In this document: positions 16,671 to 33,742 of the stretch, piece by piece
How positions within the stretch are numbered: position 1 is the first letter of the stretch
Layout: each line of letters begins with the position of its first letter
Assembly: GCF_024223415.1 (NCBI RefSeq)
Contig: NZ_CP100500.1
Length of the DNA stretch: 64,000 nucleotides
Origin: Escherichia coli
GTDB taxonomy: Bacteria; Pseudomonadota; Gammaproteobacteria; Enterobacterales; Enterobacteriaceae
Strand: one strand, 5' to 3'
Position numbers and translations under genes: made by a program
Notes under the pieces: generated by a model
Databases searched by the model: none
What the model was told of the DNA's origin: nothing
Seen by the model: only the letters and a program-made list of their open reading frames with translations

Positions 16671-17930
16671 TCAACCAATCCCCATGCTTTCAGCCAGTGC
16701 TTCCAGCGCCTGTTCAAAACACGCCAGCGGTGCCCGCACGGTGCCTGCGCCAATCTGCCCGATCCCCGCCTCTTTATGGGCGATACCGGTATTGATGAGT
16801 GGCGTAATGCCGGTTTCTACCACGCGACGAATGTCCAGTCCCAGGCACGCGCCCTGAAAATCCCAGCTTGGGATCTGCAACTGCATATTGCGTTCAAGGT
16901 AAATTTCCGCCATCTCTTCAGATACCGCCCTGGCCGCTTCCATGCCACCCGCACCGACAAAGCGCGTTACGCCAGGCGCTGCGATCATTGCCGCACCTCC
17001 GATACCAAAGGTTTCGGTAATCGCGCTATCGCCCATATCCGGGTTCGCCTGCTCCTGCGAGAAGCCGGTGAAAAACAGACCTTGCGGAGTGTTTACAGGC
17101 GCAGTAAACCAGCGTTCGCCCAGCCCGCTTACCCGAATCCCGAACATATTGCCGTTGCGGGTCATTGCCGTGACGATGCTGCCTGCGCGGATCATCGCGC
17201 CAGCATCCATCGCCGCCTTGCAGTAAGCCATCGCGAGGTTGAGGAAGAACTGATCGGTCACGCTGAGGAAATCCATCACTTCCGCGATGTGCTGTTTATC
17301 ATGATCGAGGCGAGCAATTTGTGGGGCCAGCGCACGCATTAACAGTGCTGAGGAAGCAATATTGCGTTGATGGAACTCATCGCCCATCGTAATGCCCTGC
17401 GCCATCATCGCAGTAAGATCGATACCGCGCTCCATGCGCCCCAGCGCCGCGCTTAATACTGGCATTAACACATCGCGCATCCAGCGATGGCGAGTCAGGA
17501 CATCTTCGCCGTAAGCGCCAAAACGCATCACTTTGCCGATACCTTCGTTGAGGTTGCAGTACGCCCGGTTGCCGTCGGTCACGTTCTCGACCACCAGCAT
17601 CGGCATACTGGCAGAAGTAATACCGCCCATTGGCCCGACGGCATTCACATGGTGACAAGGAATGAAGTTCACTTCCCCCAGATCCAGCATCGCCAGTGCC
17701 TGCGCTTCATCTTTCGCCCAGCCTTCAAACAGACATGCGCCCACGCACGCCCCTTTCATTGGCCCGGTCATCTCCTGCCAGCGCATTGGTGGCCCGGCGT
17801 GAAGCAGTGTTTTGCCCTGGTTTAACGCACTGATGAGTGAAGATGCTGGTTTAACATCCAGCCAGTGTGGACGAGCGCGACGAATTTGTTCGATAACCGC
17901 AGCATTGGCTTGCGCCACTGATGTAAACAT
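16671..17930 (-). CDS. ylbE: DUF1116 protein, intact 419 aa here (recalled as frameshifted in K-12)
   Basis: Single uninterrupted [21 protein letters not shown]... Confidence 0.85.
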
Positions 17931-17939
17931 GGGAACCCC

Positions 17940-19607
17940 TTATTGCAAACGTTCTAATAAACGAGCCAGTTTTTTATTGCCGCCGGCGACTGGCGCCCAT
18001 TGGTAATGCACCACCGGTTTGCTGGCGCTTTGTAGTTCCAGCGCAAAACTGCGTAATCCGATGTTAATCACGGCGACGTTTTCCAGTAATGACGGTGTGT
18101 GTTGCTGTGCGGCAGGCGAGAGCGGATGAATTAACGCTGCCGCCAGCAAGGTGGCTTCCGGTAGCGAACTCACGACCGCAATCCCCGCATCTTCCAGCGT
18201 GGCGATTTGCTGCGAGCGGCATTGCGGGTCACGTTCAGTGCCTGTCACCGTGGCAATGGCATACAGTGGTTGATTGTCTGAACGCGCAGCACAGGCTTTT
18301 TGCCAGGCGCTTACCAGCGAGGCGGCAGGATCGGCGGTCGCACCGAAGCCAATCACGACATCAAGCAGCAGCACACGCACTTGCGGTTTAGCGCCGAGAT
18401 CGGCAATTAACTGGTTGCGTAAGGTTGGGTCGATCATCGGATGGGGACGCCCGACTGTGTAGAAATCATCGCCGAGGTCAATAATCTGGTGACCATCGGC
18501 GTCGAGCATCATGCCGTGATGATGGGCATCATCGGCTTCCACGCCAAGGTGTCCGGCAAGTAATCCCGCCGCTTCGGCAGCCAGCGTACCGCCGGTATAC
18601 AAACCGCAAATAAATCCGCTGCTGGCAGGCGTTATCGCGTTACGTCGCGCCGTAACGCGTGAAAGCAGGCAAGCCAGGCGTGCGGCCTCATCCAGCGAGG
18701 AGGCAAACCAGACATTCTCGTCGCGGGCCACCGCCGGGGTATAACCTAAAAACAGCGCCACCGTCGGTTTGCCGGTTGCTTTCATGGCATTAACAATTTT
18801 CAGACGCACCGCTTCGGCAGGTGGTTTTGAAACAAATGCCAGCACTTCGCTTTTCTCGTCTGCACTGAGCATCTCCAGCGCCGTCAGCGCACTGATGCCG
18901 CCCACTTCACGGCTGAGGTCGCGGCCGCCAAGGCCAATCGCGTGAGTAATTCCCTCCCCTGCCAGCGCAATCTGCGAACACAGCTCCTGAATCCCGGTAC
19001 CGGAAGCGCCAATGACGCCAATATTGCCTTCCGGCATCACGTTAGCAAAAGCCAGCGGCGTGGCGGCAATCATCGACGTACCGCAGTCCGGCCCCATCAC
19101 CAGCAAGCCTTTTTCCCGCGCGCGGGTTTTAAGTTGGATTTCATCTTCCAGCGTGACGTTATCGGAGAACATCATCACGTTGAGGTTGCGATCCAGCGCC
19201 TGATTCGCCAGCTCCGCCGCATACTCGCCAGCCACTGAAATCAGCGCCAGATTGGCATCGGGTAATTTCTGACAGGCACTGTCCCAGCGACGCACCTGCG
19301 TCAACGCCTGGCTGCTGCCTGACCCCTGCGCCAGTTGTTTTAGCGCCTCTTCAAGCTGCTGCATAATCGCCTGCGCGATCCCCGCATCCGCCGCTTCGCT
19401 ACGAATTGCCACGCAAATATCGTTCGGCGTGGCGTTATTAAAATCGTCATGCCAGAAACCTGTGGTATCTAATAACGCTTTATTGGCGGGCGTACCCATC
19501 ATTACGGAAACATCATCAACATTTTCTGATTCGCTGAGTTTTCGTGAAATAATCATTAAACTGACCGAATCCTGAAAACACCCTTTTTTAATAAAGGCGT
19601 GGATCAT
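17940..19607 (-). CDS. fdrA: succinyl-CoA-synthetase-alpha-like (CoA-ligase fold) protein
   Basis: 555 aa, MIHAFIKKGCFQDSVSLMIISRKL. Confidence 0.9.
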   Translation of the reverse strand: MIHAFIKKGCFQDSVSLMIISRKLSESENVDDVSVMMGTPANKALLDTTGFWHDDFNNATPNDICVAIRSEAADAGIAQAIMQQLEEALKQLAQGSGSSQALTQVRRWDSACQKLPDANLALISVAGEYAAELANQALDRNLNVMMFSDNVTLEDEIQLKTRAREKGLLVMGPDCGTSMIAATPLAFANVMPEGNIGVIGASGTGIQELCSQIALAGEGITHAIGLGGRDLSREVGGISALTALEMLSADEKSEVLAFVSKPPAEAVRLKIVNAMKATGKPTVALFLGYTPAVARDENVWFASSLDEAARLACLLSRVTARRNAITPASSGFICGLYTGGTLAAEAAGLLAGHLGVEADDAHHHGMMLDADGHQIIDLGDDFYTVGRPHPMIDPTLRNQLIADLGAKPQVRVLLLDVVIGFGATADPAASLVSAWQKACAARSDNQPLYAIATVTGTERDPQCRSQQIATLEDAGIAVVSSLPEATLLAAALIHPLSPAAQQHTPSLLENVAVINIGLRSFALELQSASKPVVHYQWAPVAGGNKKLARLLERLQ

Positions 19608-23402: not shown

Positions 23403-23466
23403 CGGGTCCTTCTGGAATTATGGCCCGTTACGGGGCGTCGACCTCGCGGTTTTTCGCTATTTATGA
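23403..23466 (+). repeat. lambda-type cosQ-cosN sequence, left copy (12-mer GGGCGTCGACCT at 23433-23444)
   Basis: CGGGTCCTT..GTTACGGGGCGTCGACCTCGCGGTTTTTCGCTATTTATGA matches the lambda cos junction ..GGGTCCTTTCCGG..GTTACG/GGGCGGCGACCT/CGCGGGTTTTCGCTATTTATGA (from memory). Confidence 0.8.
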
Positions 23467-23661: not shown

Positions 23662-24102
23662 TTAACTTTGCTGTTCTGTAACGACTGATTGTTCCATGCT
23701 GGCACGGCGAACGCTTACGGCATGACGCCACCCAGCCAGAAAGCCAGCCATTTTATTTCGTGCCTTGCTCACATCTTCCGGTGAATAGCCGTAAATATGC
23801 AAACCTTCATCAAATCGCTGTTCTGTTTCTTCACTGAAATACTCGTCGCGCTCTGACGCAATCAACCTGGCAACCATAATCTTTTCCAGTGCGCTGGTTT
23901 CTCCGTGGTACTCAATAGCATCAAGATGGCTTTTACCCATGCACCAGAATAATGTGTGTCCGATGTGATAACCGCCGGACTTTCCGCGATCCGCATCAAG
24001 ATATGGCATGCCCTGTTTGGTCCATGCGCGAATAGTGGTTCTGTTGACCTTGAAATGTTCTGCTATTTCCTGCTGACTCACAAAACAAGCTTTATCAATC
24101 AT
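23662..24102 (-). CDS. Nu1-like winged-HTH protein (small-terminase N-domain homologue; candidate packaging-redirection protein)
   Basis: VSQQEIAEHFKVNRTTIRAWTKQGMPYL aligns with lambda Nu1 VNKKQLADIFGASIRTIQNWQEQGMPVL. The C-terminal half is unrelated to Nu1. Confidence 0.7.
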   Translation of the reverse strand: MIDKACFVSQQEIAEHFKVNRTTIRAWTKQGMPYLDADRGKSGGYHIGHTLFWCMGKSHLDAIEYHGETSALEKIMVARLIASERDEYFSEETEQRFDEGLHIYGYSPEDVSKARNKMAGFLAGWRHAVSVRRASMEQSVVTEQQS

Positions 24103-24169
24103 AATGTTACCTTAATCATGCGATTAAATGTTAATCAAGTGGTGGTGGTGTCACCTTCACGGAAAAACG

Positions 24170-24234
24170 TCATAAATAGCGAAAACGCGCGAGGTCGACG
24201 CCCCGTAACGGGTCCACATGCCGGAAAGGACCCG
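24170..24234 (-). repeat. lambda-type cosQ-cosN sequence, right copy, inverted (12-mer at 24192-24203)
   Basis: The reverse complement CGGGTCCTTTCCGGCATGTGGACCCGTTACGGGGCGTCGACCTCGCGCGTTTTCGCTATTTATGA matches the left copy and lambda cos. Confidence 0.8.
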
Positions 24235-24235
24235 C

Positions 24236-24258
24236 AAAAAAAGCCGGATTTCTCCGGC
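24236..24258 (-). terminator. intrinsic terminator after orf137
   Basis: On the minus strand, the GCCGGAGAAATCCGGC hairpin is followed by a U7 run, 7 nt after the stop codon. Confidence 0.8.
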
Positions 24259-24264
24259 CTTGTC

Positions 24265-24678
24265 TCAGATGGTTTTCAGTATGCGATCGATGTCGCCGTC
24301 ATCGCCCTGGTTTGTGCCATCGTATGCCATGCCAGCTGATACGGCTTTCGGGCTGTGCATGTCCATAAAGTTTTCAAAGGCTGAAGTAAGCTCTGGTGCA
24401 ACCTTCGGGCGTTCCTGCTCTATGGTCATGCTAAGGATGCTTTTAGCCGTACCAACATCGATACAAGGCACGTTAGCCATTGCACGTAACAGCGGCTGGT
24501 AGTCGTCAGATTCATGAAGCGCCATAATCGCATCAGCGCGCGGCTTGTCCTGTTCTTCCAGTTTGTTGAGTCGGTGTATGGCCTCGTAGGTTGATAAACC
24601 TCTGTCAGCCATTGCCCGCGCTTCGGCTTTAAATTTACTCGCCAGCGGTAGCTTCATGATACTTTCATTCGTTGCCAT
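24265..24678 (-). CDS. hypothetical 137-aa head-module protein
   Basis: Strong SD AGGGGGAA. Tightly packed after the decoration gene. No family recognised. Confidence 0.6.
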   Translation of the reverse strand: MATNESIMKLPLASKFKAEARAMADRGLSTYEAIHRLNKLEEQDKPRADAIMALHESDDYQPLLRAMANVPCIDVGTAKSILSMTIEQERPKVAPELTSAFENFMDMHSPKAVSAGMAYDGTNQGDDGDIDRILKTI

Positions 24679-24690
24679 CGTTCCCCCTGC

Positions 24691-25026
24691 TTATCGTGCC
24701 AGCGGCTGAACGGATACGCCGGAACCCGCAAAGGCGGCGCATTTTTTCGCATCGGTGTCGACGCTATCAGGCCAGTTAACGGCGGCAATATTGAATATCC
24801 CCGTTTTGTAACACTGTGCTGATTTCTGCTTTGACGTGTCCACGGGGTGCGAAGTCAGATAAACAGCTTTGCCAGATTCCTGACCATCCCACGCCTTAAA
24901 CTCGCCATTGTCTGCCAGCATCAGCGGGGTAAATTCCTGAATAACGCCAGCATCAGCGGCAAAATGTACCAGCGTCGTGGATACCTGCTGGCTGCCTGAA
25001 AATAACTCAATGTATGGAGCGTCCAT
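24691..25026 (-). CDS. head decoration protein, lambda gpD-like
   Basis: 111 aa. TPLMLADNGEFKAWDG and KKCAAFAGSGVSV align with gpD TPLMLDTSSRKLVAWDG and KKRTAFAGTAISIV. Confidence 0.8.
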   Translation of the reverse strand: MDAPYIELFSGSQQVSTTLVHFAADAGVIQEFTPLMLADNGEFKAWDGQESGKAVYLTSHPVDTSKQKSAQCYKTGIFNIAAVNWPDSVDTDAKKCAAFAGSGVSVQPLAR

Positions 25027-25037
25027 AGAATCCCCCG

Positions 25038-26093
25038 TTAAGCAATTTTGACGGTAACAAATTTGCGAATATCTGCCGGTACCGGCTGCGGTGCGCTGTG
25101 CGTCTGCACGTACTCAATCGCCGGATCGCCGTCCTCAATCCAGTTTTTCGGGTAGTACATGTTTTGCGTTGCGCCCGTTCTTACCGCTTCCTGATCCATA
25201 ATCGCACCATATGCCACCAGCCCTTTATTGTTGGTGTTACCCAGGACCAGCAAATCAGGCTCAAGGAAATATTTTTCGGTGCCGTCGCTGTCAGTGTATT
25301 TGCCGGAATAGACGATAAGGGCCAGATCACCAAGATAGCCTTTAAAGCTCACCACTTCGCCCAGGTTTTTACAGGCCAGCTCGGCGGCGGATTCTGACCC
25401 ACGGGAAAGATCGTACAGTTCACGGAATTTTTTAAAGCTGCGTAATGTGCGCCATACCTCACCGCCCATAATCATGACGTTGGCGGGGCAACCTGCCTGA
25501 TCAGCATAAAGCTCGATGTCATAGATTGGGTCGTGCATGTCTTTATCCTGCTGGGACCATTTTTTACCACTGGCCTGCTGTATGATGCAGTTTTCCGGTA
25601 TTTTCCAGTCGATTTCATAGCGTTCTATGCCTTCGCCCTCAATGATGTTTTTTCCGGTCGTTACCGCATTCACCGCCAGCCATTCAACACGCGCTTTAAT
25701 GGCGTTTACCTGGCGGCGCATGTTGCCAGTAATCAGGCGCATACGGCGATAGGTTGGGTCGTTAAGCTGTGCCGGATCTTCTCCAGCCATGCGCATGATG
25801 GTCTTTGTTGGATCGATTTCGTGCTTTGGCTTCATGTAGCCTGGTTTAATCGTGCTGGTTTCGTACCCTTTATCGCGCTGGACCTGACTACCCACCATAG
25901 GAGAACAGAACGCAGACATCGTAACCTCTTCAATGTCCAGGGTGTCCAGCATGATGTTTTGGGTGTTGAAGGTCGCCACGTTCGGGAAAAACAGCGTGGT
26001 AAACAGCGGACTAAATTTAAATTCCGAAATATCCCCGCGATTCAGGTACGCGAAAAGCTGGTTAGTTGTAAGTGCCGTTGCTTTGCCTGTCAT
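25038..26093 (-). CDS. major capsid protein, lambda gpE family
   Basis: 351 aa. KFSPLF, PGYMKPKHE, YPKNW and HSAP align with gpE KFDPLF, PGYVKPKHE, YPKNW and QSAP. SD GGAGGTG, with a TAATG overlap with the upstream ORF. Confidence 0.9.
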   Translation of the reverse strand: MTGKATALTTNQLFAYLNRGDISEFKFSPLFTTLFFPNVATFNTQNIMLDTLDIEEVTMSAFCSPMVGSQVQRDKGYETSTIKPGYMKPKHEIDPTKTIMRMAGEDPAQLNDPTYRRMRLITGNMRRQVNAIKARVEWLAVNAVTTGKNIIEGEGIERYEIDWKIPENCIIQQASGKKWSQQDKDMHDPIYDIELYADQAGCPANVMIMGGEVWRTLRSFKKFRELYDLSRGSESAAELACKNLGEVVSFKGYLGDLALIVYSGKYTDSDGTEKYFLEPDLLVLGNTNNKGLVAYGAIMDQEAVRTGATQNMYYPKNWIEDGDPAIEYVQTHSAPQPVPADIRKFVTVKIA

Positions 26094-26299
26094 TATTCAC
26101 CTCCGTGAACCTGATTGATACCCAGCGCCGCACGTAAATAGGTGCGCACCTGCCAGCCTGTTGACGGCTCAACCATCGCCAGCGGATCAAGTCCTGCCGC
26201 AATGCCTGCTTTTACATTCTGCTGGTGGCGTTCCTTGAGCGCCTCCACGATGTCGGGGCTTATGTAGACCGTCACCCCGCCTTTTTTCTCTTCTGCCAT
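26093..26299 (-). CDS. hypothetical 68-aa protein, first gene of the capsid operon
   Basis: Translationally coupled to the capsid gene. No family recognised. Confidence 0.55.
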   Translation of the reverse strand: MAEEKKGGVTVYISPDIVEALKERHQQNVKAGIAAGLDPLAMVEPSTGWQVRTYLRAALGINQVHGGE

Positions 26300-26332
26300 A
26301 GTCAGAAATTCCTCTTTGACTTAAAAAATCAT

Positions 26333-26383
26333 AACTGGATGTTCATCCAGTCCTGATTATAATCATGATTGCATTTTGTGCAA
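26333..26383 (-). promoter_or_regulatory. sigma70 promoter of the capsid operon (TTGCAC-16-TATAAT) with an overlapping LexA-like palindrome
   Basis: On the minus strand, the -35 is at 26378-26383 and the -10 at 26356-26361. AACTGGATGTTCATCCAGTC (26333-26352) has CTG-N10-CAG and starts 5 nt after the -10. Confidence 0.6.
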
Positions 26384-26466
26384 TAATGTTGAGTTGTGTT
26401 GCAAATTATGAAATGATTATCCCGATCATGTGTGTCAGTGCACCATAAAAAACCTCGTATACAAAA

Positions 26467-26504
26467 GCCCGATAAGCCCCCTGTGACCTTATCGGGCTTT
26501 TTTT
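26467..26504. terminator. hairpin GCCCGATAAG..CTTATCGGGC with T7 on the plus strand and UUUUGU on the minus strand (bidirectional)
   Basis: 10-bp stem flanked by A/T runs. Confidence 0.7.
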
Positions 26505-26510
26505 AGGCGT

Positions 26511-26532
26511 AAAAAAGCCGGATTGCTCCGGC
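26511..26532 (-). terminator. intrinsic terminator after the PerC-like gene
   Basis: On the minus strand, the GCCGGAGCAATCCGGC hairpin is followed by U6. Near-identical to the terminator at 24236-24258. Confidence 0.8.
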
Positions 26533-26539
26533 TGTGTGC

Positions 26540-26812
26540 TCACTTCTGCGGGTAGTTGCGCCATATTGCTTTGCCAATACCAGCTATCCCCATTTGTTTT
26601 TCAGTGCGATTAACTGACCTTTTCAGAGCGCCTAAATCATCCGGCGGCTCCGGTGGCCTCTGTGCCTTCCGTGAACATTCCAGCCGTCGCATTGCCACCT
26701 GTGCGCGTTCCTTGTCTGTCTCCACCAGCATCATCACTTCACCCCATCGCGCGGCCGCCCTCCGGTAAAATCCTTTCGCCTCCAGTTCCTCCGCTATCCG
26801 GTCATGTACCAT
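26540..26812 (-). CDS. PerC/Pch-family transcriptional activator-like protein
   Basis: 90 aa from MVHDRIAEELEAKGFYRRAAARWGEVM, with SD GAGGGGG. The motif resembles PerC-family A..LE..GLWRRAA.RW (from memory). Confidence 0.55.
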   Translation of the reverse strand: MVHDRIAEELEAKGFYRRAAARWGEVMMLVETDKERAQVAMRRLECSRKAQRPPEPPDDLGALKRSVNRTEKQMGIAGIGKAIWRNYPQK

Positions 26813-26822
26813 CGTCACCCCC

Positions 26823-27233
26823 TCAGAACGGAATATCATCACCGTAAGGGTCATCGCCTCCCGCTGGTGGCTGATTACCCTGTGTGCCTGTGGTTTTGCG
26901 TCTGTTCCCGCCAGGACGTGCCGCACGGGCACTGATTACGCTGTCTGCGATGACCTGCCAGCCCTGCCGCGTTTCGCCGTTCTGGCCTGTCCACTGGCTT
27001 ACCTGCATGTTACCCGCCACGCTCACCAGTTCGCCTTTGTGGTGTCTGGCCAGTGCGTCGGCCTGTCTGCCAAACGCCAGGACGGATAACCACATCGTCG
27101 CCGTTCCGTCATCTGCCTGGCTGCATGGCAGGGGAACCGCCATACTCGCCATCGCCATTTGTGTCCCTTTGCTGGTCTGTTTTGTCTGCGGGTCGTCCAC
27201 CAGCCGCCCGTAAGCCGCTATCTGTGCTGTCAT
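26823..27233 (-). CDS. ssb: single-stranded DNA-binding protein
   Basis: 136 aa with an OB-fold-like N-terminus, a Gly/Pro-rich linker and the canonical acidic tip DDIPF. Confidence 0.85.
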   Translation of the reverse strand: MTAQIAAYGRLVDDPQTKQTSKGTQMAMASMAVPLPCSQADDGTATMWLSVLAFGRQADALARHHKGELVSVAGNMQVSQWTGQNGETRQGWQVIADSVISARAARPGGNRRKTTGTQGNQPPAGGDDPYGDDIPF

Positions 27234-27773: not shown

Positions 27774-29522
27774 CTATAAAAACGCGTCGCAGTCGTCTGT
27801 TGTTGTCACGTTGGTTTGCGTAAACCCTTTAATCCTGCGCGTTATATATTCATGACCGTAAACTTTCGCCGCTGGCTTCATGGCCTTGCTGAACTCAGCC
27901 ACGTTCAGCGGTTTGCTCCTGCCTGCATACGCCATAAACGCCAGATAGACGCGGTAAAGGCTGTTTCTGGTCGTGTACTTCACTGAATCGCCACCGCCGC
28001 CCATCATCAGGCCACGTGCTTCCTCCAGAAAATTCAGGAACTGGCAAAACTCAATAACCGGATCCGTCTGTTGCTTTATTGCCAGAGCTTCATCACCGTC
28101 TCGCTGTTCAATGAGTAAAGCCCGTGCCTTTTCAGGGTCGGCAAAGTTCGCCAGCAAGCGGCGGATAATGACAGGGATTTCAGCCGCGATCTTTTCCGGT
28201 AGCTCCCTGTCTTTTTCTGCCTCGCTTACGATGTTATCGAACCGGAATATCACCCGACGACGTGACACGCCTCCTGCCCGTTCGGTGAATATCATCGGGT
28301 TATTATTGGTTGCCAGCACAACCGCCCTGATTACCGCCGTGAATCGCTTTTCATATTTCGGGTTGATTTCCACGGGGTCGCCGCCCGTGATTTTCTTGAT
28401 GCCCGTTCCTTCGCCTGTATATTTCGGCTGGTCTGCCAGGACAATAAGCCTACTCCCGACAACCTGCGCACGCCCACCAGCATCATCAAGCGATGTCATC
28501 TCAGCGCTTACCGTGTTCTGTTTCCCTGCCAGAAGGCTGGCTATGTGTGTGAATGTACTTTTACCGCTCCCGCCGTCTCCGGTGGCCTCAATAAACATCT
28601 GCCAGTCGTACCGGTTCGCCATAATCATGTACAGCGCGGCACATATACGCATCATCTTGCGCGGGTCTTTTCCGGCAGCGTGATCAAGCCATTTATGAAA
28701 GTTTGGCGCGTTGTCGCGGATATTCTCACCTGGTACTGGCGGCGTGTACTCAATGCCGTTGTGTGTGGTGATCCAGTTCTCCGGCGTGTGCGGGGAAAAT
28801 TCCCCCGTTTTCAGGTCAAGCGCACCATTGGCGAACGGCAGCAAATCGCCGGACGGCTCGCCCATTGGTTCGGCAATAACTTTTAACGCTTCCACGGCGT
28901 TACTGATTACGCGCTTGCTGAAAGTGGCCCTGTGCTCTGAATAGATCGCCACCATTTCGCGGCTCAGTTCCATTGTGCTGACCGGACACCATACCCCGCC
29001 GCGCCATACGTGAACGATTTCACTTTCCAGATGCACACAAACGCCATCAAATCGACCAGCAAGCATCTGTGCGCGCTCACTGTCTGCCATTTGTGCCAGT
29101 TGCGTATTTTTCTGCTCCGGCATGGTAAGCCCTGCGGCAATATTTTCACGCTCAGCATTCAGATAGCGCCGCCAGTTTTCACACTTCTGACCGTGCATTC
29201 CTTCAGAGTAAAAATTCGCATCCTGAATATCTGCCGCCGCCAGCTTCTGACCAATCTTTTTGGTCTCCACTAAATCCAGTTCTCCGGCCTGGTACAGCCT
29301 TACGCGTTTTTTTCCATCCGGAACAATTTTCAGCGCATCAAGTTCAGCAAGCTGATTTGGCCCAAGCCACACAGGCGGCACATTATCGCCGGATGCGGGA
29401 CCGTCCTTCTCCTGCCACTGTTGTGCATGCGACCAGGCATCACTACCCGCAAAGATAATTACCTCTGTGTCTTTGTGTTTTATTCCGCGTGGCTGTTTTT
29501 TTACGTTCGGTGCCAGTTTCAT
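27774..29522 (-). CDS. P4-alpha-type primase/SF3 helicase (replication initiator)
   Basis: 582 aa with Walker A GDGGSGKST and a D5_N/P4-family C-terminal layout. Confidence 0.85.
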   Translation of the reverse strand: MKLAPNVKKQPRGIKHKDTEVIIFAGSDAWSHAQQWQEKDGPASGDNVPPVWLGPNQLAELDALKIVPDGKKRVRLYQAGELDLVETKKIGQKLAAADIQDANFYSEGMHGQKCENWRRYLNAERENIAAGLTMPEQKNTQLAQMADSERAQMLAGRFDGVCVHLESEIVHVWRGGVWCPVSTMELSREMVAIYSEHRATFSKRVISNAVEALKVIAEPMGEPSGDLLPFANGALDLKTGEFSPHTPENWITTHNGIEYTPPVPGENIRDNAPNFHKWLDHAAGKDPRKMMRICAALYMIMANRYDWQMFIEATGDGGSGKSTFTHIASLLAGKQNTVSAEMTSLDDAGGRAQVVGSRLIVLADQPKYTGEGTGIKKITGGDPVEINPKYEKRFTAVIRAVVLATNNNPMIFTERAGGVSRRRVIFRFDNIVSEAEKDRELPEKIAAEIPVIIRRLLANFADPEKARALLIEQRDGDEALAIKQQTDPVIEFCQFLNFLEEARGLMMGGGGDSVKYTTRNSLYRVYLAFMAYAGRSKPLNVAEFSKAMKPAAKVYGHEYITRRIKGFTQTNVTTTDDCDAFL

Positions 29523-31928: not shown

Positions 31929-32117
31929 TTAGTGAACTGCCTCGCAGCTTTCCTTCCATGCCAGAACTTCGGATAAAGACCAGCCAACGGAACGACCGCC
32001 CAGCTTACGCCGTGATGGGAATTGTCCGGCCTTTTCCAGGCGGTAGCGGCATGAGCGGCTAAGCCCTGTTAGCTTTTCGCATTCTTTTTCACGTATAAAC
32101 CGATCAGTGCTTAACAC
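31929..32117 (-). CDS. alpA: AlpA-family HTH regulator/excisionase-like protein
   Basis: 62 aa, GTG start with SD AAAGGGGG. The LTGLSRSCRYRLEKAGQFPSRRKLGGRSVGWSLSEVLAW motif is typical of AlpA. Confidence 0.85.
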   Translation of the reverse strand: MLSTDRFIREKECEKLTGLSRSCRYRLEKAGQFPSRRKLGGRSVGWSLSEVLAWKESCEAVH

Positions 32118-32409
32118 TATTGCCCCCTTTCGTTTCTTAAAGAGTTATTTCGTGTTCTATTGCGTTGGTATGTGTCTGATTGTGTCAGGGTGATTCAGAG
32201 TTGGCAAATGTTGGTGGCGGGTATTTTACAGAAACGGGGTTATTTTAATAAAAAACATTTTAATTCAGTATTATGCAAAGGCATAAAATCTCGTTTTATG
32301 CCTTTTTTCTCACTATTTAAAGCGTTATTCGCTAATGTATAAAAAACCAGTTGAGCATTAAAAATCAGCAACTTATAAATCTGTATACTTTTTGGCCTCT
32401 TGTTCGTGG

Positions 32410-32443: not shown

Positions 32444-32491
32444 ATCTGTGCACTTATCCAGTATGCGCATACTGAAAAAACACGAAAAAAA

Positions 32492-33742
32492 TTATTTTCT
32501 TCTGGTTACTGGTAGCGTGGTTACGTTTTCATGTGCTCCCGCCAGTATCTCCAACCGCTCCACCCACATATCCAGCGCATTGCGTTTCGCATCCAGATAA
32601 CGGGAATGATTATAAACTCGCTGCATTCCTGGCATCTGGTGGCCTGTAAGCTGCTCCACGACGTGAGGATCCACGCCTAAATCGTTCAGCATCGTTGTAA
32701 AGGTGCGCCGGATGTCATGCAGTGACCAGTGAGGGTGTTTAAGCCTCCTGTGCGCTAATCTTCCATACTGCGATACGCTGGCCTCCTGTTTCACTTCCCC
32801 CAGCAATAAGCCCGTGTGCCTGTTCTGCTCCACCAGCTGCGTGACGAACGGCAGTATCGCTTCCGGTATGGGCCGGAATATGGCTACCTTCGTTTTGCTG
32901 TGCTCCTTCGGAACGGTCCATAGCATTTCGGTAAAATCCCACTCCCCGATCTCCGATAGCCTCAGTTCTACTGTCCTGGCTCCGAAGACAATCAGGAGGC
33001 GGATTAGTGCGACGTAGTAAGGGGAAAATATTTTTTTGTCCAGTGCCTGCAATAATTCGCCAAGTTCTTTGTTACTTAAGACACGCTGACTTATATCCGG
33101 TTTTTTCCCAACGTCAGCAACACTCATATCATCAAGAACGTTGCTGATTGCATAGCGCCGCTTCCGGCAGAACTTAAGCGCCTGTTTGCATGTCTGTAGC
33201 AGGAATCCGGCGGAAACAGGGGCTTGCTTTGCCACCCGATCAAAACAGGCCAGCCAGTGCCGTAGCTCGCATTTATCCAGCGGCATAGCACCAATCTGCT
33301 GTATTACGTGATTATTAAGTCGCCTTTTCAGGGCGATATAATCCACGCGGTTTTCCTTTACGTAATACTCAAGCCAGTAGGTAAGCGCATCGCCAACCGT
33401 TACAGGCTTTAACGCTTCCTGTACGGTGTAATTCATCTCATGACGTGGATTTTTCCCCTCAGCCAGCCATGCGCGGCACTGTGCGGCTTTTTCCCTGGCT
33501 GCTTTCAGGCTCAGATCAGGATAATTTCCCAGCTTAATCCGTTCCGGTCGTGCTCCCCTTCCCGTTCCGGCCCTGTAGGTGAAATACCAGGTTAAAAGGC
33601 CGCTGGTTGAATGCCTGACGGTCAGGTTTCCACCGTCATTAAGAAAGACTGTTTTTTGGGCGGGTGTGCCGTTGATTTTCCTTAGCTGTGTATCGCTCAG
33701 TTTGTTAAGTGCTCTGCGCATAATTTTGATTCCGGTCATCAC
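32492..33742 (-). CDS. int: P4-family tyrosine integrase
   Basis: About 410 aa with catalytic HDIRRT...GH...Y motifs. Adjacent to the right attachment site. The start is ambiguous (GTG 33742, ATG 33739 or the ATG of MRRALNKL). Confidence 0.9.
   Translation of the reverse strand: MMTGIKIMRRALNKLSDTQLRKINGTPAQKTVFLNDGGNLTVRHSTSGLLTWYFTYRAGTGRGARPERIKLGNYPDLSLKAAREKAAQCRAWLAEGKNPRHEMNYTVQEALKPVTVGDALTYWLEYYVKENRVDYIALKRRLNNHVIQQIGAMPLDKCELRHWLACFDRVAKQAPVSAGFLLQTCKQALKFCRKRRYAISNVLDDMSVADVGKKPDISQRVLSNKELGELLQALDKKIFSPYYVALIRLLIVFGARTVELRLSEIGEWDFTEMLWTVPKEHSKTKVAIFRPIPEAILPFVTQLVEQNRHTGLLLGEVKQEASVSQYGRLAHRRLKHPHWSLHDIRRTFTTMLNDLGVDPHVVEQLTGHQMPGMQRVYNHSRYLDAKRNALDMWVERLEILAGAHENVTTLPVTRRK

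Follow-up and report, generated by a model that had tools for sequence, protein, structure and literature searches.

A probable LexA operator on the capsid promoter of an EcCICFT073-type phage satellite in Escherichia coli

Introduction

Phage-inducible chromosomal islands (PICIs) of the EcCICFT073 family are phage satellites of Gram-negative bacteria, for which induction by a helper phage, excision and packaging have been demonstrated in the prototype island of Escherichia coli CFT073 (PMC6092414). In the papers defining this island (Fillol-Salom et al. 2018 ISME J; 2019 Mol Cell), AlpA is the activator, and alpA responds to the helper phage, not to the SOS response; neither a LexA site nor SOS control of the genes c1498-c1501 is described there, and LexA is mentioned only where work on operon I of staphylococcal pathogenicity islands (SaPIs) is cited. 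In this study, we are discussing a 64-kb stretch of E. coli DNA (contig NZ_CP100500.1; "the window", to which all coordinates refer), which carries a PICI of the EcCICFT073 type on its minus strand, the capsid promoter and genes included. A 20-mer at positions 26333-26352 is probably a genuine E. coli-type LexA operator, placed on the sigma-70 promoter of the four-gene capsid-shell unit of this island.

With EcCICFT073 and its relatives, the island shares int, alpA, a primase/helicase gene, ssb, perC, the orthologues of c1498-c1501, cos and rpp (redirecting phage packaging). Its genes are ordered as in CFT073, with which it shares 93% identity in the promoter region, and CFT073 itself has the promoter with an allele of the box. 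The published regulation of EcCICFT073, however, involves AlpA only.

The closest functional parallel is found in the SaPIs, where LexA control of operon I has been shown by experiment (Ubeda et al. 2007, Mol Microbiol 65:41, as cited in PMC6092414 and PMC6739421), while here it is proposed from sequence. In both cases, a late morphogenesis promoter of a satellite would be placed under the host SOS repressor, apart from the helper-dependent master switch, which is Stl in SaPIs and AlpA here. The LexA motif of the SaPIs is of the Firmicutes type, whereas here it is CTG-N10-CAG; and while SaPI operon I comprises terS, cpmA/B and ppi, with packaging specificity inside the unit, the present unit comprises E, D and Nu3-like genes, with rpp and cos outside. 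An earlier note on this DNA, made from the letters alone, had called the locus analogous to the LexA-controlled SaPI packaging operon; as a functional analogy this stands, but the genes are unrelated and the packaging gene lies beyond the unit. The likeness is therefore one of function and not of membership, the genes not being homologous.

LexA-regulated genes of mobile elements are further known from the colicin operons, tum of coliphage 186 and rstA of CTXphi, in which the box lies at or just past the -10. There, toxins, antirepressors or early genes are controlled, whereas here capsid structural genes are concerned. While the co-option of a LexA operator by a mobile element is thus known, its presence on a capsid promoter of a Gram-negative PICI appears, provisionally, to be unreported, given that a full-text search of open-access papers and bioRxiv returned no report of LexA control of Gram-negative PICIs.

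The capsid promoter and its LexA-like box

The intergenic region in front of the capsid genes, which reads ...ATTGCACAAAATGCAATCATGATTATAATCAGGACTGGATGAACATCCAGTTATGATTTTTTAAGTCAAAGAGGAATTTCTGACTATG on the minus strand, contains the following elements.

26378-26383, minus strand: -35 hexamer TTGCAC, matching TTGACA at three of six positions (TTG); its TTGC is invariant across lineages
26356-26361, minus strand: -10 hexamer TATAAT, six of six, with a 16-nt spacer from the -35
26333-26352, minus strand: candidate LexA (SOS) box, the 20-mer GACTGGATGAACATCCAGTT, with its CTG-N10-CAG core at 26350-26335
26310-26316, minus strand: ribosome-binding site AAGAGGA of the first gene, conserved in the homologue alignments

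Together, the hexamers form a putative sigma-70 promoter, which sits between two terminators and the first gene; the ATG of the latter is at 26299, i.e., 57 nt from the -10 (26356 minus 26299). The hexamers, the spacer, the box and the distance to the ATG are all found where the earlier note had placed them. Its view of the promoter as near-consensus, or almost perfect, is appropriate for the -10, which matches at all six positions and is nearly invariant, but not for the -35 with its three matches, at a spacer of 16 nt. Because the -35 agrees with TTGACA at just three positions, the promoter was not listed by a consensus scan requiring at least four of six matches per hexamer. Taken alone, the TTG-N19-TATAAT motif is not rare (two occurrences in the window versus 0.48 expected).

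The five nucleotides CAGGA separate the -10 from CTGGATGAACATCCAG (26350-26335, minus strand), in agreement with the claim of a CTG-N10-CAG spacing at this distance. The 20-mer (plus-strand reading: AACTGGATGTTCATCCAGTC) begins 3 nt past the -10, spans the predicted transcription start and has its far end 33 nt before the ATG. Its core is CTG-N10-CAG with an A/T-rich centre, as in E. coli-type SOS boxes. The element had also been called a perfect palindrome, which it is not: the arms CTGGATG and CATCCAG (7+7, or 8+8 if the flanking A/T is counted) enclose a centre, AA/TT, that is not self-complementary.

LexA fit and chance expectation

The fit to LexA is expressed by the Lewis heterology index (HI), which is additive per position. 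Its matrix was recovered by constrained least squares from the 140 pairs of 20-mers and HI values in Table S1 of PMC12527982. The recovered fit is exact (maximal residual 5e-5) and strand-symmetric, and the matrix returns the classical HI values of recA (4.31), umuDC (2.77), ruvAB (9.19) and polB (12.09). In the K-12 table, the low-HI class extends up to about 13.6, and an agreement of 100% with 24 validated sites is reported in PMC12527982.

For the 20-mer of the window an HI of 8.15 is obtained, and for other alleles 6.81 (CFT073) and 7.61 and 6.27 (O157). The value, with alleles ranging from 5.36 to 9.86, is well within the LexA-binding range (roughly at or below 12.6-13.6), so that the index, on which the earlier note had made its LexA proposal depend, does not exceed that range. 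It is better than the values of uvrD (8.80), box 2 of lexA (8.32) and ruvAB. The ruvAB box, CGCTGGATATCTATCCAGCA, which the earlier note had cited as closely similar, was given there correctly; it is contained in Table S1 with an HI of 9.19. Both ruvAB and cho/ydjQ (CACTGGATAGATAACCAGCA, HI 9.54) share the CTGGAT...ATCCAG half-sites with the present box, at a similar or worse HI, but belong to DNA-repair genes of the core genome, whereas here the promoter of structural genes of a mobile element is concerned.

Based on the base composition of the window, a CTG-N10-CAG 20-mer with an HI of 8.15 or lower is expected by chance 1.4e-7 times per position, which corresponds to 0.009 sites in 64 kb and 0.74 sites in 5.2 Mb. 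Among the 23 CTG-N10-CAG sites of the window, 26333-26352 is the best by more than 3 HI units, followed by sites with 11.5 and 12.15. In LexA-dependent genes of Salmonella, boxes overlap the start site near the coding sequence and have an HI of about 6.3; the geometry and the HI of the present box resemble these.

Comparison of homologous promoters

Relatives of the 68-aa first gene of the unit (57-75% identity) were traced to their contigs, and homologues of the capsid gene were gathered from IMG/VR, yielding about 75 distinct promoters after de-duplication. A scan of a species-representative genome collection with the 68-aa and capsid alignments gave no matches. The box is present in the identical slot, 3 nt past the -10, in 60 of the 70 distinct promoters that could be anchored on a conserved dyad (described below) and in four of five further ones, i.e., in about 64 of 75. 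It occurs as 15 different 20-mers, throughout with an HI of 5.36-9.86.

None of the box-bearing homologues deviates from the CTG/CAG core. The full set of invariant columns comprises CTG, A7, T8, A11, A13, T14 and CAG, which are, except for A11, those most heavily penalised by the LexA matrix, while the variable columns hold bases that carry a low penalty. In diverged lineages, whose capsid proteins are 63-68% identical, the RNA hairpin that the palindrome could form is lost, but the LexA fit is kept or even improved, as compared below with the E. coli type.

L015: GACTGGATGCACATACAGTT, HI 8.08, hairpin -3.2 kcal/mol
L031: AACTGGATGAACATACAGTT, HI 5.41, hairpin -2.8 kcal/mol
L016: CACTGTATATAAATTCAGTT, HI 7.69, hairpin -1.6 kcal/mol
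L017: TACTGTATATAAATTCAGTT, HI 5.36, hairpin -1.5 kcal/mol
E. coli type, for comparison: hairpin -8.3 to -8.7 kcal/mol

When equal numbers of random substitutions are introduced into the common allele, the observed HI is reached with p values of 0.03 for L010, 0.03 for L015 and 6e-5 to 6e-4 for L017/L016. From the substitution pattern together with this test it follows that the conserved property is the fit to LexA, and not RNA structure or generic symmetry. Thus, the idea of a LexA box, as put forward in the earlier note, gains comparative support both from the position of the site and from the kind of change it tolerates.

The -10 hexamer is TATAAT in all 60 box-bearing regions of the first set, while TGTAAT or TATAAC takes its place in two further variants that bear a box. 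Promoters without a box have the weaker TAAAAT, with an island bearing a 1-nt insertion as the single exception. Such a coupling between the strength of the -10 and the repressor site fits the expectation for a strong promoter that needs a repressor.

The transcription unit and its expression

The boxed promoter drives four genes, which are the orthologues of c1498-c1501. These genes, their boundaries and the elements downstream are as follows.

26463-26533, minus strand: two tandem intrinsic terminators, one at -12.6 kcal/mol (z -3.6), the other at -24.2 kcal/mol (z -6.3), both with a T run behind the hairpin
26093-26299, minus strand: first gene, 68 aa, phrog_3255; orthologue of c1498
25038-26093, minus strand: major capsid protein of the lambda gpE type (PF03864, E 1.1e-50; phrog_29, E 3.5e-109); orthologue of c1499
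24691-25026, minus strand: head decoration protein of the lambda gpD type (PF02924, E 2.2e-17; phrog_49, E 3e-27); orthologue of c1500
24265-24678, minus strand: 137-aa Nu3-like protein (phrog_1999, E 2.6e-61); orthologue of c1501
24236-24261, minus strand: strong intrinsic terminator, stem GGCCGGAGAAATCCGGCC followed by T7, -18.6 kcal/mol, z -2.9; end of the boxed unit
24152-24239, minus strand: lambda-like cos, GGGGCGTCGACCTCGCG...TTTTCGCTATTTATGA, 81-89% identical to unannotated cos regions of lambdoid phages
23662-24102, minus strand: rpp homologue (phmmer against PDB: RppC 6HLK, E 1.7e-32; phrog_57, TerS-like helix-turn-helix)

The tandem terminators, of which the terminator scan listed 26533-26516, close the upstream early ssb-perC unit and insulate the capsid promoter. 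Homologues of the 68-aa gene always precede the capsid gene, the stop of the former overlapping the start of the latter. The 137-aa protein additionally matches phrog_53 at positions 495-568 of 583 (E 5e-8), i.e., the C-terminal end of head maturation proteases, at which Nu3/scaffold is positioned. It is followed by the terminator, cos and rpp in this order, and since the terminator precedes cos and rpp, these are excluded from the unit, which contains no packaging gene.

The boundaries are confirmed for CFT073 by RNA sequencing data on a shift from 23 to 37 C (supplement of PMC12890032), in which c1498-c1501 shift as a block, while c1503 and ssb do not.

c1497 (ssb): log2 fold change 0.24, not significant
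c1498: log2 fold change 2.24, significant
c1499: log2 fold change 2.05, significant
c1500: log2 fold change 1.45, significant
c1501: log2 fold change 1.17, significant
c1503 (rpp): log2 fold change 0.33, not significant

Head and packaging genes alike had been suggested to be under SOS control. The shell genes do lie in the boxed unit, but cos and rpp are located beyond its terminator, and c1503 is not co-regulated. The temperature induction as such suggests that the AT-rich promoter is under thermal control, possibly by H-NS-like silencing or by a factor that binds the dyad described in the next section. As a further observation on the region downstream, rpp lies between two inverted lambda-like cos sequences (24152-24239 and about 23410-23460), which correspond to cos1 and cos2 as described for EcCICFT073.

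A second dyad over the -35

Besides the box, the promoter contains a dyad symmetry, of which a degenerate copy is found further upstream.

26368-26384, minus strand: dyad ATTGCA-N5-TGCAAT (TTGC-N7-GCAAT) over the -35 and the spacer, centred near -27; candidate non-LexA operator
26398-26405, minus strand: upstream element TTTGCAAC, which repeats the TTGC...GCAA dyad in degenerate form 21 nt upstream of the main copy; conserved in the alignments

The arms of the dyad are invariant or nearly so in every lineage, including the box-less ones, while its spacer is variable; L010, L012, L015, L016 and L019 are among the lineages whose upstream regions show it. In L012 (Edwardsiella) and L016, a full second dyad is found about 32 nt upstream. 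Full or degenerate, the second copy is two or three helical turns away from the main one. The exact TTGC-N7-GCAA dyad was also sought elsewhere in the island, e.g., at the alpA promoter, but only the copy at the capsid promoter was found, and the count over the window is at chance level. The conservation pattern suggests that the dyad is probably the operator of another, non-LexA regulator.

The 68-aa protein was considered as a ribbon-helix-helix autoregulator acting on a dyad. This candidate was dropped as unsupported, judging from the AlphaFold2 (AF2) model of the protein (predicted local distance difference test score 75.6; an N-terminal beta-hairpin and two helices), for which Foldseek returned no significant match in the PDB (best E 4.8).

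Proposed regulation and alternative explanations

LexA very likely binds the site, as judged from its HI and conservation, and it is likely that this binding gives meaningful SOS control. In an undamaged cell, a LexA dimer would occupy about -4 to +16 and hinder the binding of RNA polymerase or the formation of the open complex. Upon DNA damage, activated RecA would trigger self-cleavage of LexA, and the promoter would be freed, coinciding with the SOS induction of a lambdoid helper prophage. By this means, the shell proteins would be made early, apart from the helper-dependent AlpA switch for excision and replication. The conserved dyad over the -35 and spacer, as well as the temperature response without SOS, would be further inputs. 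For E/D-type Gram-negative PICIs in general, we lean slightly towards a two-key design, in which the helper would act via AlpA on excision and replication, while LexA would directly gate the insulated shell cassette, supplemented by the TTGC-N7-GCAAT operator and by temperature.

Several points weigh against LexA as the governing regulator. The -35 is weak, with three of six matches, and the start site on which the position of the box is gauged is a predicted one. About 11 of the 75 distinct promoters are without a box. Among these are the Edwardsiella lineage (L012), whose module also contains a portal protein and an S49 protease, the lineage of L019/L021/L111/L234, and one E. coli-type island, in which a 1-nt insertion results in N11 spacing and thereby breaks the box; since such promoters exist, LexA control is dispensable for the module. 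Deletion of c1499 or c1500 leaves transfer and interference with lambda unaffected (PMC6092414). Finally, c1498-c1501 of CFT073 are up 2- to 4.7-fold upon the shift from 23 to 37 C, while the SOS markers sulA (0.25), umuD (0.24) and umuC (0.44) are unchanged. The unit is therefore expressed without a need for SOS, and LexA is not its sole control; if LexA does repress the promoter, its repression would have to be leaky or secondary to some other control.

As one alternative, LexA might be able to bind but play a minor role in vivo, with a dyad-binding protein or an H-NS-type thermoregulation governing the promoter and the box providing a modest SOS boost at most. The temperature response with flat SOS markers, the conservation of the dyad arms (but not of the spacer) in all lineages, box-less ones included, and the approximately 15% of distinct promoters that do without the box are all in favour of this explanation. 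We nevertheless regard it as unlikely, because the LexA-specific substitution pattern across lineages with 63-68% capsid identity can hardly be accounted for unless LexA binding is under selection, and because the presence of the box tracks the stronger -10. The palindrome might, instead, be the operator of a different dimeric protein with a CTG-N10-CAG-like specificity, encoded either by the satellite (e.g., the 68-aa protein as an autoregulator) or by the helper. Dyad symmetry at start sites is typical of operators, the first gene encodes a small protein, and many SOS boxes are less symmetric than the E. coli-type box (CTGGAT..ATCCAG) found here. Box and 68-aa protein are uncoupled, however, as the box-less lineages still encode the protein; its AF2 model matches no DNA-binding fold significantly; and in L016/L017 the site turns into a textbook SOS box (TACTGTATATAAATTCAGTT) at reduced symmetry, all of which makes this reading quite improbable.

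The palindrome might also act in the RNA, as a hairpin stabilising the 5' end of the mRNA or, together with a U-run, as an attenuator or terminator subject to, e.g., antitermination by the helper. Indeed, 26352-26333 plus ATGATTTTTT was flagged as terminator-like by the terminator scan, and a folding energy of -11.9 kcal/mol (z -3.7) is obtained for the RNA. The stem has only three G-C pairs, however, and the U-run begins 4-5 nt past it, unlike in an intrinsic terminator with its stable G+C-rich stem and immediately adjoining U-run; the hairpin ranges from -10.3 to -1.5 kcal/mol among the box-bearing promoters, several variants breaking the stem while fitting LexA better; and the palindrome matches no Rfam family. 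With its stability unconserved and the LexA fit conserved, the RNA reading was rejected as very improbable. That the box is a chance match without function is hardly credible: the TTG-N19-TATAAT motif is statistically ordinary on its own, but the expectation for the box is far below one per window, as given above, and its position relative to the -10 is fixed in about 64 distinct promoters and in four diverged lineages. Hence, a LexA operator remains our preferred reading of the 20-mer.

Other LexA-like sites in the window

Three further elements of the window resemble LexA boxes.

32444-32463, minus strand: TACTGGATAAGTGCACAGAT, a weak LexA-like box between the int stop and alpA, HI 12.15 (10.5-11.6 in other alleles)
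32333-32352, minus strand: AACTGGTTTTTTATACATTA, resembling the uvrB SOS box (AACTGTTTTTTTATCCAGTA), with the right core broken (CAT or CAC, not CAG)
17844-17863: the CTG-N10-CAG site TGCTGGTTTAACATCCAGCC, HI 11.5, near the 3' end of a 555-aa open reading frame (17940-19607), outside the island

The weak int-alpA box is found in six of seven aligned spacers and is deleted in CFT073. It is followed by three to four direct repeats of ACAACGTGAAACAA, possibly sites of the arm type or sites for AlpA. The core of the uvrB-like element is invariant in all seven aligned alleles, that of CFT073 included, and the element may serve as a promoter or arm site. A second SOS input by the int-alpA boxes was considered and rejected, with HI values of 10.5-12.2 or a broken core, and with alpA published as not SOS-responsive in CFT073.

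Organisation and modularity of the island

At one end of the island, int and alpA are found in the same transcription direction, and a replication module is located between them and the capsid unit.

32492-33742, minus strand: integrase (int; PF00589, PF13356)
31929-32117, minus strand: AlpA (PF05930, E 5e-18)
27774-29522, minus strand: D5-type primase (domain matches D5_N/DUF5906/Pox_D5), replication module
26823-27233, minus strand: single-stranded DNA-binding protein (SSB), replication module
26540-26932, minus strand: PerC

The same 401-nt promoter region is found with 100% identity in E. coli TUM9803 (L269), where a RepA-type helicase replaces the D5-type primase and the island occupies another chromosomal site. 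From these differences between TUM9803 and the window it follows that the islands are mosaic. Furthermore, early modules that are nearly the same, at one and the same roxA-phoQ integration site, are combined with different late modules, as seen in EDL933 (L275, 1678000-1700000) versus TW14359 (L276) and CFT073 (L001). In most O157 strains and CFT073, the late module consists of E/D/Nu3 and an Rpp or TerS-like gene, while that of EDL933 contains a full HK97-type head and terminase set, making it the capsid-forming PICI CP-933C. The late regions of satellites are, thus, swapped as modules.

CP-933C has its early module (int, alpA, DUF4222, ssb and perC) and its place of integration in common with the island of the window, but not its late module, which is of the HK97 head/terminase type, and its capsid promoter region is without a LexA box. 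A 1.8-fold decrease of the "CP-933C major capsid protein" in the ciprofloxacin RNA sequencing/proteome study of EDL933 (PMC11125564) was considered as counter-evidence to SOS control and dropped. This dataset is uninformative because CP-933C has the HK97 module without a box, at the site where other O157 strains carry the E/D island. An olaquindox study of ATCC 25922 and a paper on the prophage pool of O157 Sakai likewise offered no usable data on the capsid-unit genes, and the search for data on LexA binding or SOS derepression turned up no dataset for a strain with the E/D island.

Significance

Among 5426 complete E. coli genomes, 605 contain the region, carriers including CFT073, most O157:H7 lineages and ATCC 25922. 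If the proposed control is true, fluoroquinolone or mitomycin would directly trigger the expression of satellite capsid genes in about every ninth E. coli genome; given how widespread the region is, the structural genes of satellites could be turned on in many clinical strains by antibiotics that induce SOS. Neither transfer nor interference with lambda and phi80 requires the genes c1498-c1501, and their expression under SOS would give a handle on their role.

For the Gram-negative PICIs, the published model has one input, the helper-induced AlpA, to which a LexA operator would add an input controlled by the host. It would parallel the SaPIs, in what may be a convergent re-invention of the logic of operon I and an SOS licensing of phage satellites in Enterobacteria.

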